Positions 1 to 3,706 of a DNA stretch of 64,000 bases are shown here, in pieces. How positions within the stretch are numbered: the stretch's first letter is position 1; each line of letters begins with the position of its first letter. A program made the translations under genes and the position numbers. Below the pieces are notes generated by a model that saw nothing but the letters and a program-made list of their open reading frames with translations, was not told where the DNA came from and ran no database searches. Source of the stretch: Chloroflexota bacterium (GTDB lineage: Bacteria > Chloroflexota > UBA11872). Location: the NCBI GenBank assembly GCA_965219705.1, contig OZ244789.1, positions 1,526,718-1,590,717 on the forward strand. The letters run 5' to 3'.

Positions 1-333
1 CAACGCGCGCGCCGCCGCCAGCGCATCCTGCCCATCACTCTTGTCCCGGCGCCCGCTCCGCCGCCGCTCCCGCGCCGTCACCCAGCCCGGCACCTCGTGC
101 ACCGGCTCGCCCGCTTGCTGCAGCCGCCGCGTCAACACCCGCCCATGGCCGCTGGCCCCTTCCACCGCCCAGGCCCGCGCGCCCGGCGCGGCCGCCGCCC
201 ACTGCTGCAACCGCGCCTGTCCGGCGCCCGTGTTGGGCACCGTCCGCTCGCCCTGCGGGCGCCCGATGGCATCCACCCGCACCGCCGTCAGCGTCGCCGC
301 ATGACAATCCACCCCCACGATCCACCGCTCCAT
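1..333 (-). CDS. IS110-family DEDD recombinase/transposase, N-terminal part (continues beyond the window start)
   Basis: Manual translation from ATG 333: MERWIVGVDCHAATLTAVRVDAIG...WAVEGASGHG...RRDKSDGQDALAAARAL, showing the GVD-x-H, VE-G and KSD-xx-DA motifs of the IS110 RuvC-like domain. AAGGAGG RBS upstream. Not in the ORF track. Confidence 0.93.
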   Translation of the reverse strand, partial: MERWIVGVDCHAATLTAVRVDAIGRPQGERTVPNTGAGQARLQQWAAAAPGARAWAVEGASGHGRVLTRRLQQAGEPVHEVPGWVTARERRRSGRRDKSDGQDALAAARAL

Positions 334-344
334 CCCGTCCTCCT

Positions 345-545
345 TCGCGGTACGCTCAGTTGGCGGCGTGGGGGACGATCCTGTGTGGAGTGGCCGTTGC
401 GCCACGATCTCCTATCAAGTCACCCCCGCCGCCCTGAGCACTGGCCGGCGGGGGGACGCTTCGAGCGCCAGGCCTGCCTCACGGCAGCCACGGAATGACC
501 GAGTCACCCCCGCCGGGTGCTCGGGACTCTACCGAGTCCCGCCCG
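345..545 (-). ncRNA. Putative IS110 bridge RNA (5' hairpin, target-binding loop, donor-binding loop)
   Basis: Hairpin GGGACTC-GGTA-GAGTCCC (523-540), then two similar stem/internal-loop/hairpin units (CCGGCGGGGG...CCCCCCGCCGG and GGCGGCGGGGG...CCCCCACGCCGCC) whose loop strands match the flank and the element end. Boundaries approximate. Confidence 0.8.
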
Positions 546-3500
546 CAGTCTGGACACACAGGAATGACGCGAAGAGGCGCGGCCAGCATGACGGTGAGCG
601 CGACGACGACCCAGAAGGTGGCCGCCAACTCGGGCAGGAAGAGGCTGCTATCGACCATGCCGTGCACGAGCGTCGCCAGCATCGCGCCGCCCAGGCCGTA
701 GACGAGCGCCTGGTTGCCGGGCGCGCTGCGACGCAGGGCCCTGTGCCAGGTGCGGGCGTAGACGGCCAGCACCGCGGCCACCGCGACCAGACCGGGAATG
801 CCCAGCGTGAGCCAGGTGTCGAGGGCGATGTTGTGCGCGTGGGAGATGTTGGGCTCCGCCCAGGCTTCGGGTCGGATGTAGTCCGGGTAGTGGTAGAGGA
901 AGTTGTCCGGGCCCACGCCGAGGATCGGGTTGTCGGTGAGCATGCGCCAGGCGGAGTCCCAGAGCAGCGGCCGCGCCGCCGTGGCGGCGTCGGACGGGCG
1001 CATGAGTTGCGCGAGTTGGTCGCCGCTGGTGGTGACGATGGCCGCCAATAGCCCGGCCGCCACCAGGCCCGCCGCGAGCAGCGGCGCTGAGGCACGCATG
1101 CGACGGAGGACGGGGCCTGGATTCCGGCTTCCGCCGGAATGACGGATGGTGCTGTGCCGCCAGATGGGGACCAGCGCCACCGCCAGGCCGGCCAGCGCGC
1201 CGATCCAGGCGCCGCGGCTGAACGTCAGCACTAGGACGGCAACGAGCAGCGCCGCCGCCGCCCACGCGGTTGTGCGCAGCCGCGGTCGCGACGAGGCGGC
1301 TAGTGCCAGGCCGACCGCCACGGGCAGGGCGCGCTCGAGAATGAGCGCCAAGTTGTTGGGCGAGCCGAACAGGCCGCGCAGCCGCGGCGGACCGGCATCG
1401 GTGACGACGGCCCCTGCCGGGATGAGCAGGAGTGCCATGGCCGCCGAGACCACGGCCCCGAGCACGAGCGCGACGCCGAGGCGCTGCGCCATGGCGCGAT
1501 CGCGCGCCACGCTGAGCAGGACCAGGAACAGCAGCGCCGGCTCGACGATGACCGTGCGCAGATCCCGCCAGGCGACTCTGGGGAAGTCCGCCGCCACCGT
1601 GGCGGCAATGCCCGCGCCGATGACGGCGAGCGGAAGCCAGAGCCACCAGCCCCGGACCGGCGGCCAACGGCGCTGCGACAGGGCGCGTGCGGCCCAGGCG
1701 ATGATCAGTACGACAATCAGCGTCTCGCCGACCGGCCGGTCGTAGATGCCGGTGCGCGCGATCACGCCGACGAACGGGATCGCGGCGACCGCAACGATGG
1801 CCACGTGGCGCGGCCGCGCCAGTGCCAGGGCACCCAGGGCTGCCGCCAACACCAGCCGCGCCAGCGTCCAGGCGGACGTTGGCGCGCCGTCCGGCAGCAG
1901 CACGAACACCGCGGCCAGGGCGCCGGCGACAACCTCGCCCGCATATAGGCCGGCTGGGAGCCGCAGGTCCAGCGCCGTCGTCGGTGGCGCCCGTGCGGCA
2001 ATGGCCCGCACGGCGCGACCGCCGACCGCCCACACGAGCGCCGCCAGCGCCAGCGCCCAGGTGGCGGCAACCGCGGCGTAGGGCCAGAGCGGCCGCCCAT
2101 TGCCCACCAGTGCGCCGTCGACGATCACCAGCCCACCCGACGACCCCGGGTCGCGCTCGGCCATCACCGTCAGCTCGAGCACGTGCGGGCCGTTGGAGAG
2201 CCCGCGGGCGATGGGGATGCGCGCCAGGCGCTGGACCTCGGGCGCGTAGAGATTCAGGATCGCCTCGCCGGCGGCGTTGCGCGGCAGGGCGTCGGCCAGA
2301 GCGCTGTGGCCGTCGATATGTATCCGCGCCTGTCCCATGTCGGGACCGCGCCGCGTCAGCAAACCGACTGAATCGCCTTCGAACCGCAACTCCAGCCGGG
2401 CATCGGGCTGCCCGGTCTGGCGGTGAAGCCCCAGTGACGCCCAGTCGCTGGGCAGTCTCGGCCAAGGTCCGTCGAAGCTGAAGGCGGCGTGCGTTTCCTG
2501 GTGCAAGCCCACGCCGGCCGTCGCGAGACCCGCCTGCGCCTCTTGCAGTGCCAGCAGCGGCGCGCGCGGCGTCAGATCCTTGTTGAGCAGCCCGAAGAAC
2601 GGCGTCGGGTCGTCGGGATGGGTGTCATGCGGCCAGCGCGAGGCCCAGATGATGATGGTGGGCAGCCAGGGCCACTGCTCCCGCGCCCGCCGGATGCCGT
2701 CCACGGTCCACGCCGCCTGGTCGGCCGCCGAGTGATTGCCCCAGATGCCCTGGTTGCCCTCCCAGCCGGGGGGCAACGACATCCAGCCGTACTCCGAGGC
2801 CCAGATCGGCGTGCCGGCGTCGCCGTGGGCCTCCATGATCTCGCGCCAGAGCACGGCGCGGGGCAAGTTCGTCCGCGCCGGGTCGATCCGCGGATCGCGC
2901 GGGCCGGTGAACAGGCCGTAGGACATGCTGGAGGCGATGTCGAACGCGCCCTTGGCGCCCAGTTGATAGAGCCGGTCCAGGAACAGCAGGTCGCTGAGGT
3001 TGTCGGGACCGGTTTCGATCGTCGGCGCCAGCCCCGCCAGCACGATCACCGCGTCGGGGTTGGCTTCTCGAACGGCCGTGCCGACCGCGCGCAGCATGTC
3101 GAGGTAGGCGGCGGGGTCCGGCGGCCGGCCACCCCATTCGCCGAACAGGTTGGGCTCGTTCCAGATCTGGAAATACCGCACCTTGCCGCGGTAACGCGCC
3201 GCCACCGCGGCGGCGAAGTCCGCAAAGTCGTTGAAGTCCGCGGGCGGCATCTGGATCGACGGGTTTGCCTGCGGGTCGAATCCGGGCGTGGCCCACGGCG
3301 GCGGGCGGTCGAGCCGGGCGAGCACCTCGATGCCGAAGCGATTCGCCAGGTTGACAATCCGGTCGTACTTGGCCCAGGCATCGGCGCCGCGGTTGTCGAT
3401 GTGCTCGCCCTTGGCGAGGGGTTCAATCTCGACCCACTGAATCTCTTGCCGAATGAGGCCAATACCGGCGTCGGCCAAGAGTTCCAGCTCGCGCTCGACC

Positions 3501-3706
3501 TTCGCCGGATCCGCCTCGCGATGGAGGAAGGTGTTGGCGCCGATCGCCGGTGCGTCCGCGTGATGCAGTTCCGGTAGCGCGGCGAGGCCAAAGGTCGCGC
3601 CGCGCTCGGTGAGGACGGCCCATCCAAGGAGACCGGCCGTGACCACGCCAACTACCGCGAGGACGAGGACGGCGAGGGCGATCCGCCAACTACGCCGGCG
3701 CCGCAT
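479..3706 (-). CDS. Membrane protein: clan GH-A glycoside hydrolase (GH5/GH39-like) fused to an O-antigen ligase-like domain
   Basis: WNEPN and SEYGW catalytic-type motifs; multi-TM C-terminal part with GSPNNLA, TFSRGAW, GVGPDNF and HAHN motifs. The last ~27 codons read into the IS110 end. Confidence 0.85.
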   Translation of the reverse strand: MRRRRSWRIALAVLVLAVVGVVTAGLLGWAVLTERGATFGLAALPELHHADAPAIGANTFLHREADPAKVERELELLADAGIGLIRQEIQWVEIEPLAKGEHIDNRGADAWAKYDRIVNLANRFGIEVLARLDRPPPWATPGFDPQANPSIQMPPADFNDFADFAAAVAARYRGKVRYFQIWNEPNLFGEWGGRPPDPAAYLDMLRAVGTAVREANPDAVIVLAGLAPTIETGPDNLSDLLFLDRLYQLGAKGAFDIASSMSYGLFTGPRDPRIDPARTNLPRAVLWREIMEAHGDAGTPIWASEYGWMSLPPGWEGNQGIWGNHSAADQAAWTVDGIRRAREQWPWLPTIIIWASRWPHDTHPDDPTPFFGLLNKDLTPRAPLLALQEAQAGLATAGVGLHQETHAAFSFDGPWPRLPSDWASLGLHRQTGQPDARLELRFEGDSVGLLTRRGPDMGQARIHIDGHSALADALPRNAAGEAILNLYAPEVQRLARIPIARGLSNGPHVLELTVMAERDPGSSGGLVIVDGALVGNGRPLWPYAAVAATWALALAALVWAVGGRAVRAIAARAPPTTALDLRLPAGLYAGEVVAGALAAVFVLLPDGAPTSAWTLARLVLAAALGALALARPRHVAIVAVAAIPFVGVIARTGIYDRPVGETLIVVLIIAWAARALSQRRWPPVRGWWLWLPLAVIGAGIAATVAADFPRVAWRDLRTVIVEPALLFLVLLSVARDRAMAQRLGVALVLGAVVSAAMALLLIPAGAVVTDAGPPRLRGLFGSPNNLALILERALPVAVGLALAASSRPRLRTTAWAAAALLVAVLVLTFSRGAWIGALAGLAVALVPIWRHSTIRHSGGSRNPGPVLRRMRASAPLLAAGLVAAGLLAAIVTTSGDQLAQLMRPSDAATAARPLLWDSAWRMLTDNPILGVGPDNFLYHYPDYIRPEAWAEPNISHAHNIALDTWLTLGIPGLVAVAAVLAVYARTWHRALRRSAPGNQALVYGLGGAMLATLVHGMVDSSLFLPELAATFWVVVALTVMLAAPLRVIPVCPDCGRDSVESRAPGGGDSVIPWLP
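1117..1145 (-). repeat. GTCATTCC-type REP palindrome inside the coding frame
   Basis: CCGTCATTCCGGCGGAAGCCGGAATCCAG, hairpin ATTCCGGC-GGAA-GCCGGAAT, translated as RHSGGSRNP. Confidence 0.8.

Follow-up and report, generated by a model that had tools for sequence, protein, structure and literature searches.

An IS110-group element of a high-G+C relative of Chloroflexota with a predicted bridge RNA whose guides can be read from raw sequence

The window analysed here is a 64-kb stretch (G000:C1:1526718-1590717) of a genome with 67% G+C whose nearest relatives are Chloroflexota, and the sequence preceding it was read as well. The minus strand of window positions 1-560 is the left part of an IS110-group insertion sequence. 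We find that the left end of this element encodes a predicted bridge RNA of about 200 nt, and that the element's target is GTCATT-CC-GAGCGC, which lies inside an imperfect palindrome resembling repetitive extragenic palindromic (REP) elements. We put the probability of this reading as a whole (IS110-group element, bridge RNA and REP target) at roughly 0.9. Among the known IS110 bridge-RNA elements it is an ordinary one, though cleanly readable. The mechanism was published in 2024, when thousands of such RNAs were predicted, and the element itself leaves that knowledge unchanged. It is a compact, intact predicted bridge recombinase from a high-G+C lineage related to Chloroflexota, with a target, donor arms and guide registers that are fixed by empty sites and about 70 relatives. 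With its registers fixed, it is therefore a ready candidate for orthologue screens like those that yielded ISCro4 and IS622. Its guides can be decoded correctly by a reader using raw sequence, and its unequal cores are the sole feature deserving a specialist's second look.

The element measures 1294 bp plus a 2-bp core, and insertion adds 1296 bp at a site. Three intact copies are present in the genome (copy A, which lies in the window, and copies B and C); they are 98-100% identical, and the recombinase frame is open in each. Their alignment places the left homology boundary where ...(C/T)GTCATTCC meets TGTGTGTCC..., with the element starting at TGTGTG, and the right boundary where ...GTTGACATAGGAGCGTC, also given as ...GGAGCGTC, meets GAG. 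At copy A the right junction reads ...TTGACATAGGAG-CG-TC, followed by GAGCGC (that is, ATAGGAG-CG-TC and then GAGCGC).

The predicted bridge RNA and its guides

An earlier reading of the window from its letters alone (here called the sequence-only reading) had proposed that the non-coding end of the element holds a 5′ hairpin and two similar stem/internal-loop/hairpin modules, whose loops repeat the sequences of the junctions. The strings that it cited are present where it placed them. For example, the plus strand has GGAATGAC (in minus-strand sense GTCATTCC) at 492-499 and again at 561-568, TCCTGTGTG at 379-387, and the reverse complement of the latter, CACACAGGA, at 555-563. Similarly, the minus strand reads GCGCTCGAA at 468-460 and ATAGGAGATC at 415-406. 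The string CACACAGGA occurs twice in the 64-kb window, both times in this locus, as compared to a mean of 0.32 in shuffled sequence, where two of 100 shuffles reach two occurrences. The proposed architecture was also recovered: the minimum-energy fold of window positions 345-561 (minus strand) consists of a 5′ hairpin and two stem/internal-loop/hairpin modules, with an energy of -119.6 kcal/mol (z = -3.6; 1 of 200 shuffles folds equally well). The two modules are paralogous, both starting with GGCGGGGGUGACU(C/U)G and both having 3′ loop strands of 15 nt. The same consensus fold was obtained from eight close sequences of related Chloroflexota genomes, whose recombinases share 81-85% protein identity. 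The features of the locus are as follows, in window coordinates.

1-333, minus strand: IS110-family recombinase, first 111 of 353 codons (open reading frame and Pfam)
339-344, minus strand: ribosome-binding site AGGAGG, 5 nt before the ATG (read from sequence)
362-433, minus strand: predicted donor-binding module (single and consensus folds)
362-373 with 423-433, minus strand: basal stem of the donor module; GUC 374-376 also pairs with GAC 419-421
378-387, minus strand: right donor guide CACACA (382-387), core-facing GG (380-381) and handshake-position AU (378-379)
390-405, minus strand: apical hairpin of the donor module
409-415, minus strand: left donor guide AUAGGAG, in the sense of ...ACATAGGAG-CG-TC (right end, overlapping the stop codon)
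445-516, minus strand: predicted target-binding module (single and consensus folds)
445-454 with 507-516, minus strand: basal stem of the target module; GUC 455-457 also pairs with GAC 503-505
459-468, minus strand: right target guide GCGCUC (463-468), core-facing GA (461-462) and handshake-position AG (459-460)
469-491, minus strand: apical hairpin of the target module
492-499, minus strand: left target guide GUCAUUCC, sense of flank GTCATT plus core CC; the flank is GTCATTCC in all three copies
523-540, minus strand: 5′ hairpin of the predicted bridge RNA (single and consensus folds)
541-560, minus strand: first bases of the left end (boundary from the three-copy alignment and empty sites)
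555-560, minus strand: right donor arm TGTGTG, the start of the left end
561-562, minus strand: core dinucleotide CC of the left junction (empty sites TTCC-GAGC)
563-570, minus strand: left target arm GCGTCATT, the left half of the REP-like element and the 3′ end of a 1075-codon open reading frame (ORF)

In bridge RNAs the target loop comes first and the donor loop second, as stated in the available text of PMC11208160, and by the published IS621 model the first internal loop would bind the target and the second the donor. In loop 1, GUCAUUCC gives the left flank in sense and GCGCUCGA the right flank in antisense; in loop 2, AUAGGAG gives the right end in sense and CACACAGG the left end (CC-TGTGTG) in antisense. 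The right target guide is the reverse complement of the right junction TC-GAGCGC; its portion GCGCUCG is antisense to C-GAGCGC, and a single mismatch falls on the target's first core base. The right donor guide together with GG is the reverse complement of TGTGTG (555-560) plus CC (561-562). The 7-mer ATAGGAG is kept in essentially all homologues, both at the right end and in the loop, and the three loop bases after AUAGGAG (AUC, AUU, AGU or ACU) vary among homologues without matching the end.

These relationships change together among close homologues. For example, loop GCGC goes with flank GAGCGC and loop GGCC with flank GAGGCC or GAGGTC; the change from GCGC to GGCC is found in three close homologues, in two of which the right flank is readable. 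Similarly, base 379 is A where the last base of the left flank is T and G where that base is C. Base 492, at the end of the left target guide, is C or A and covaries with base 469 (G or U) within the RNA, the eight close sequences giving four A-U pairs, three C-G pairs and one broken pair.

To reach beyond close relatives, a covariance model of both modules was built from the eight close sequences and applied to 75 distant loci at 36-46% protein identity, most of them from Thermoleophilia genome bins (40-46%). Seventy of the 75 have a full-length match on the strand of the recombinase gene and just upstream of it. In the resulting alignment, which is fitted to the structure of the model and in which kin share changes, pairing holds in 93.4% of cells, and both partners change in 36 of the 45 pairs, figures that are not to be taken as probabilities. 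None of 500 shuffles reaches any of five pairing measures, and sliding the partners lowers pairing to 31-56%, a large gap despite the fitted alignment. Changes on both sides are found in 18 of 22 pairs of the target module (helices 2-5) and in 14 of 18 pairs of the donor module (helices 6 and 7; 66 distinct sequences). One homologue (L041:1250-1500) has a donor-binding module and no recognisable target-binding module upstream of its recombinase, and the covariance model finds no match there; by its sequence it looks like a 5′-truncated element.

The guides of the distant loci were then compared with their flanks. In distant loci the model did not align the target loop reliably within the loops, so we used an anchor-based, alignment-free matching, in which the flanks at the 75 loci were taken by fixed anchors and each loop was scored against its own flank and against permuted flanks; L017, L022 and L079, whose matches lie too near a contig end, were left out of the flank set. 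Own flanks scored above permuted flanks for the left target guide (7.22 versus 5.70 of 9), the right target guide (6.82 versus 5.77 of 9) and the right donor guide (6.26 versus 5.29 of 8), and none of 5000 permutations reached the observed value in any of the three, in a comparison that leaves the relatedness among loci in place. A wrong-loop control was flat (3.75 versus 3.82), as was the right flank in the wrong, sense reading (4.88 versus 4.89). Individual loci illustrate the pattern: flank CGTAAGCG-CC goes with loop CGUAAGCGCC in L083, flank CATTAGA-CC with loop CAUUAGACC in L072, and flank CCGAGAG-AG with loop CCGAGAGAG in L090. Covariation of guides and flanks in homologous elements, whose absence the sequence-only reading had named among the ways to disprove it, is seen in both the close and the distant sets.

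According to the published IS621 model, the DEDD/serine recombinase and the bridge RNA would recombine the circularised element with GTCATT-CC-GAGCGC. The RNA would be made, probably from a promoter rebuilt across the junction of right end and left end by way of a conserved TTGACA. A perfect TTGACA, kept in distant homologues, lies 10 nt ahead of the right core's end, a placement that appears to fit the junction promoter described in the available text of PMC11208160 and PMC13626964. That the RNA is produced, that it binds the recombinase and that the element is active at present are points that we only infer. A scan of window positions 1-900 found no terminator.

The REP-like target and its empty sites

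The target GTCATT-CC-GAGCGC is known from orthologous empty sites. It comprises the left arm and the loop edge of the REP-like imperfect palindrome GTCATTCCGAGCGnAGCGAGGAATC. The sequence-only reading had taken a REP palindrome as the target, and about 40 genomic copies of such a palindrome, GTCATTCCGAGCGnAGCGAGGAATCT, were indeed found by pattern search (27 of 25 nt and 13 of 26 nt), with the layout ATTCC-GA-GC-loop-GC-GA-GGAAT. Twelve unoccupied copies of the 14-mer GTCATTCCGAGCGC are present in the genome versus 0.05 expected. The shorter word GGAATGAC occurs six times in the 64-kb window versus 1.68 expected, because it is part of a genomic repeat. A second, larger REP-like family, CCGTCATTCCCGCGAAAGCGGGAATCC, has 92 copies by pattern (for example at window positions 1121-1146); it has the same GTCATTCC...GGAATC arms around a different centre and holds no copy of the element.

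Empty sites were obtained for two of the three copies, all from other species, with flank identities of 77-90%. For copy A, all four informative same-genus loci (G009, G001, G010 and G006) read GTCATTCCGAGCG(C/A)AGCGAGGAATCTA. A metagenomic contig of run X4 also spans this site without the element, skipping 1300 bases and carrying four other letters (net 1296), and reads GTCGCTCCGAGCGCC. For copy C the empty site in G006 reads TGTCCTTCCGAGCCGCAGGCGAGG (TTCC-GAGCCGC). The target GTCATTCC-GAGCGC with core CC, which had been deduced from the loops, is thereby borne out for copy A in four related genomes and one metagenomic contig, and for copy C as TTCC-GAGCCGC in one genome. Copy B yielded no empty site, its left flank being unconserved in relatives over the final 200 nt. 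About the last 80 nt of this flank are a repeat (L099:1182-1260; G000:C1 about 1393115-1393193) that has dozens of copies at 87-97% identity in all 12 genomes of the genus and that ends in the REP of copy B. In six Thermoleophilia loci (L046, L051, L074, L029, L048 and L037) the left flank (about 1240-1290) holds a second right-end-like sequence, TTGACA.GTCA(T/A)AGGAG..., before the target motif, which suggests that a second, related element was inserted beside the same site.

The sequence-only reading had also predicted a right junction that it could not see, namely ATAGGAGAT-CC followed by GAGCGC. The 7-mer ATAGGAG and the flank GAGCGC proved exact, and seven of nine bases of the element end were right, but CG-TC stands where AT-CC had been predicted, so that three bases between the 7-mer and the flank, the first core base among them, were wrong. 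The junction is thus related to the prediction, an unrelated one having been named beforehand as a disproof. Except for these last bases of the right end, the interpretation as an IS110 bridge-RNA element is supported.

Two other readings of these loops and flanks were weighed. The element could be of the same type with core TC on both sides, in which case it would start CTGTGTG and its target would be a rarer REP variant one C shorter, GTCAT-TC-GAGCGC. In that register all four guide strands hold UC or GA and three match perfectly; the shorter REP form stands empty at two genomic sites (C1:1923143 and C1:186005); and the last base of the left target guide is A in three close homologues, as if the second C went unread. 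This last point is explained by the pairing of that variable base with 469 inside the RNA. Moreover, the empty sites at two independent insertions (copy A in four genomes and one contig, copy C in one genome) read TCC-GAG, the core of distant homologues lies 4 nt before the conserved TGTC, a register that gives CC here, and GTCATTCGAGCGC occurs once in the genome versus 12 copies of the CC form. Since the empty sites come from other species, an earlier one-base deletion in this lineage is conceivable. We consider core TC very unlikely. Core TC with the shorter target had been an early working model, drawn from the UC and GA of the guides, and was dropped on the empty sites and the register of the distant homologues. 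Less likely still is that the matches between loops and flanks have no function, being captured pieces of REP or chance in a decaying fossil. In its favour, the word GGAATGAC is common in the genome (292 copies versus 67 expected). A captured REP would, however, keep one orientation, whereas the two halves here run in opposite senses, the left in sense and the right in antisense, a requirement of bridge RNAs according to the available text of PMC11208160. The loops also change together with the flanks in other genomes, the stems covary, and three copies at 98-100% identity retain open frames.

Several observations weigh against the reading of a bridge RNA aimed at the REP target, and they are gathered here. 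In the right target guide an A lies opposite a C, giving one mismatch with the target's own core, and at copies B and C the right arm matches the guide contiguously for 3-4 bases only (GAGACGC and GAGCCGC). The left donor guide ends 2 nt before the core and shows no covariation (7.70 versus 7.75 of 9), since there is almost no variation at the right end (TTGACATAGGAGCA-AC among the distant loci). One of the controls was slightly raised: against loop 1 the left flank, when reverse-complemented, scored 5.43 versus 5.11, with 2 of 5000 permutations as high, which probably reflects palindromic targets. The fitted alignment behind the pair counts and the relatedness that both permutations and shuffles leave in place belong here too. 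Rfam 15 gave no match over 334-560 at E values up to 10, the presence of a bridge-RNA model in that release being unverified, and over window positions 1-1200 at the same threshold it gave three chance-level hits, all outside the RNA. A scan of window positions 1-900 found no sigma-70-like promoter in the chromosomal left end, and the -10 candidates of the rebuilt junction are weak (CCAGAC at 17 nt spacing and CAGACT at 18 nt). Finally, none of the 24 sequencing runs listed is recorded as RNA, and no circle junction was seen. The contigs of X1-X4 contain no back-joint either, but contigs drop rare forms and are uninformative about circles.

The element, its recombinase and known relatives

The layout of the element, with a long non-coding left end carrying the RNA and a short right end, is that of the IS110 group and not of IS1111; by the criterion given in the available text of PMC11208160 we assign it to the IS110 group because the left end is 227 nt long (window 334-560) and the right end 5 nt. 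The latter is what follows the recombinase stop codon, the TAG within CATAGGAG. The element has no terminal inverted repeats. It does have TGTCCA (551-556, minus strand), an inverted copy of the TTGACA near the right end (window -720..-725); TGTC(A/C) at the left end is kept in all homologues, and the subterminal inverted pair is kept as TGTCA/TTGACA in distant ones. The TTGACA hexamer, which is also the candidate -35 box, may thus have two roles. No tandem or circle-like junction (a right-end motif followed closely by a left-end motif) was found in the assembly.

The recombinase starts at an ATG at 333 (minus strand), behind AGGAGG, and ends at a TAG at window -726..-728, in the sequence preceding the window. 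Its identification as an IS110 DEDD recombinase by the sequence-only reading is confirmed by the full 353-codon frame, which matches PF01548 (DEDD_Tnp_IS110) at 77.7 bits (cut-off 29) and PF02371 at 74.7 bits (cut-off 21.3). It also matches the NCBIfam equivalog NF033542, 'IS110 family RNA-guided transposase', at 171 bits (cut-off 140) over residues 5-341 of 353. The only matches among solved structures are the transposases of ISCro4 (E 7.8e-9) and IS621 (E 6.9e-6). Residues D9, E58, D100, D103, S270, S271 and G272 are invariant in 14 homologues. The four acidic residues align with the D, E and D..D of the ISCro4 chain, in an N-terminal alignment that is weak alone (i-Evalue 0.48), and in the IS621 chain the counterpart of S271 is the serine of ESG. 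This serine is presumably the catalytic S241 of IS621, judging from the numbering in the available text of PMC11208158 and a chain offset that we take to be 2.

Comparison with IS621 of E. coli, as described in the available text of PMC11208160 (Durrant et al. 2024) and PMC11208158 (Hiraizumi et al. 2024), reveals many shared properties. Both elements have the same DEDD plus serine recombinase (PF01548 and PF02371), and in both the gene is preceded by a long left end in which a 5′ hairpin comes first, then a target-binding module and lastly a donor-binding one, each with an internal loop. They also agree in polarity, with 5′ loop strands that read the bottom strand and 3′ loop strands that read the top; each has a REP element as its target and a right end whose TTGACA faces the junction. 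Past the core-facing bases of the donor loop, the next two bases here behave like the handshake guide of IS621, the first of them covarying with the last base of the left target arm. The two differ in that protein similarity is distant and confined to the C-terminal half (E 6.9e-6), and that the core is CT in IS621 whereas here it is CC or TC, unequal at the two junctions. All four guides of IS621 include the core, whereas the left donor guide here stops 2 nt before it. The right end here extends just 5 nt beyond the stop codon, which the donor arm therefore overlaps, and the host has 67% G+C and relatives among the Chloroflexota.

Other known systems are further removed or were compared more narrowly. 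ISCro4 (PDB 9t56) is the best match among solved structures (E 7.8e-9) and has the same two domains; it was compared by protein alone, with a match mainly over residues 191-341 and a weak N-terminal alignment. The IS1111 group, or seekRNA systems (Siddiquee et al. 2024, PMC11187229, in its available text), shares the recombinase family and RNA-guided target choice. In that group, according to the available text of PMC11208160, the RNA lies in a long right end and there are subterminal inverted repeats of 7-17 bp, whereas this element has its RNA in the left end, a right end of 5 nt and TGTCCA/TTGACA as its sole inverted pair. ISPpu10 of Pseudomonas putida (bioRxiv 10.64898/2026.03.19.712850, in its available text) is an IS110 element with all of its insertions in one conserved, stem-loop-forming intergenic repeat; its target stem-loop was shown by experiment to add specificity, whereas the REP palindrome here is known from sequence alone. 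Among papers on IS110 and Chloroflexota, screened by title and start of abstract, none describes such an element; the catalogue of predicted bridge RNAs and IS110 loci of PMC11208160 may already list it or its relatives.

Copy A is inserted 7-8 codons before the end of a 1075-codon ORF (window 479-3706, minus strand), which now runs into the element with the tail ...RVIPVCPDCGRDSVESRAPGGGDSVIPWLP; in relatives a REP lies at the 3′ end of the counterpart of this gene. Two orphan pieces of the element were also found in the genome. One is a 49-nt right-end-like piece (G000:C1:2523132-2523180, 84% identity) that adjoins the right half of a REP, GACATGGGAGCGTC meeting GAGCGCAGCGAGGAATC, and the other is a 33-nt left-end-like piece (G000:C1:2240175-2240207, 88% identity) after CTATTCC. 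By their sequence both look like remains of old copies.

Unequal cores at the two junctions

The core CC deduced by the sequence-only reading holds at the left junction and at the empty sites, but the right junction reads TC. This inequality is not peculiar to copy A. The left junction is CC in nine of nine close elements and the right junction TC in all eight that are readable; the second base alone is shared, so that no close copy with readable junctions has the same core at both ends. In the wider clade both junctions were read at 70 loci, five loci without a readable right junction having been left out. The cores are identical at 50 of these (AC/AC at 48, GC/GC at one and AG/AG at one) and differ at 19 (CC/AC at nine, CC/TC at seven, GC/AC at two and CG/AC at one), in the first base or, in one case, in both; one further difference is a register artefact.

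The differing loci follow a consistent arrangement. The right junction keeps the base of the invariant right end in 19 of 19, the first core base of the left junction is the base read by the left target guide in 15 of 19, and the opposite arrangement does not occur, as none of the right junctions has the target's CC. The right target guide reads the core of the right junction in all 13 loci in which the right arm is anchored by at least 5 of 6 bases; L099, L101, L058, L082, L089 and L083, with anchors of 4 of 6 or fewer, were left out of this count. In the donor loop the core-facing bases are GG, reading CC, in 18 of 20 rows of the core comparison and, by eye, in most of the wider table. This GG fits the left junction here and shows no covariation except in L090. 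The GA of loop 1 matches the TC of the donor perfectly but mismatches the CC of the target at one base. The core-facing guides, GA in loop 1 and GG in loop 2, thus fit the junctions after rather than before the exchange of top strands; we take this to mean that donor and target differ in their first core base and that the top-strand products were inherited.

In the solved IS621 structures, according to the available text of PMC11208158, the top strands are cut just downstream of the 2-nt core and swapped, after which the 3′ guides pair with the incoming core, and the handshake guides are the next two bases, which pair with the last bases of the other DNA. Inheritance of the top strands would give two products, one in which left arm, target core and element follow each other and one in which element, donor core and right arm do, as the junctions show. 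In this clade donor and target often differ in their first core base, the donor having T here and A in the Thermoleophilia relatives and the target C, and this may be the footprint in natural genomes of inheritance through the top strand only, an idea that we hold tentatively and at somewhat below even odds. Two preprints (10.1101/2025.10.25.684509 and 10.64898/2026.08.31.748434) report, in their available text and on biochemical grounds, that integration is mostly top-strand; the words 'core' and 'heteroduplex' are unused in the available text of the former. If the idea is true, the 3′ guide of the target loop would be tuned to the incoming donor core and not to its own target, a natural 'post-exchange' design. 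The unequal cores offer a cheap comparative test of a debated question, namely top-strand-only inheritance versus resolution through both strands.

The same element and target might instead recombine with a crossover overlap of one base, the shared C, without a 2-nt staggered core and with no strand bias needed. One base alone, C, is duplicated at the junctions of all nine close copies, and where the first bases differ (19 of 70 loci) the left one follows the left target guide in 15 of 19 and the right one stays with the invariant end, as such an overlap would predict. The IS621 structures, however, have the top strands cut just after a 2-nt core that is read by guides on both strands (PMC11208158 and PMC11208160, in their available text), and the recombinase here is a homologue of IS621, though a distant one. 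We think a one-base overlap rather unlikely, if far from negligible. A one-base crossover and top-strand inheritance explain the same junction pattern, and the computed data do not separate them.

One of the loci with a short right-arm anchor has an unusual right junction. The right flank of L083 starts TCAGTGGG, resembling the start of its own left end, TCAGTGTC, and this junction may represent a tandem or junction-like arrangement of the element.

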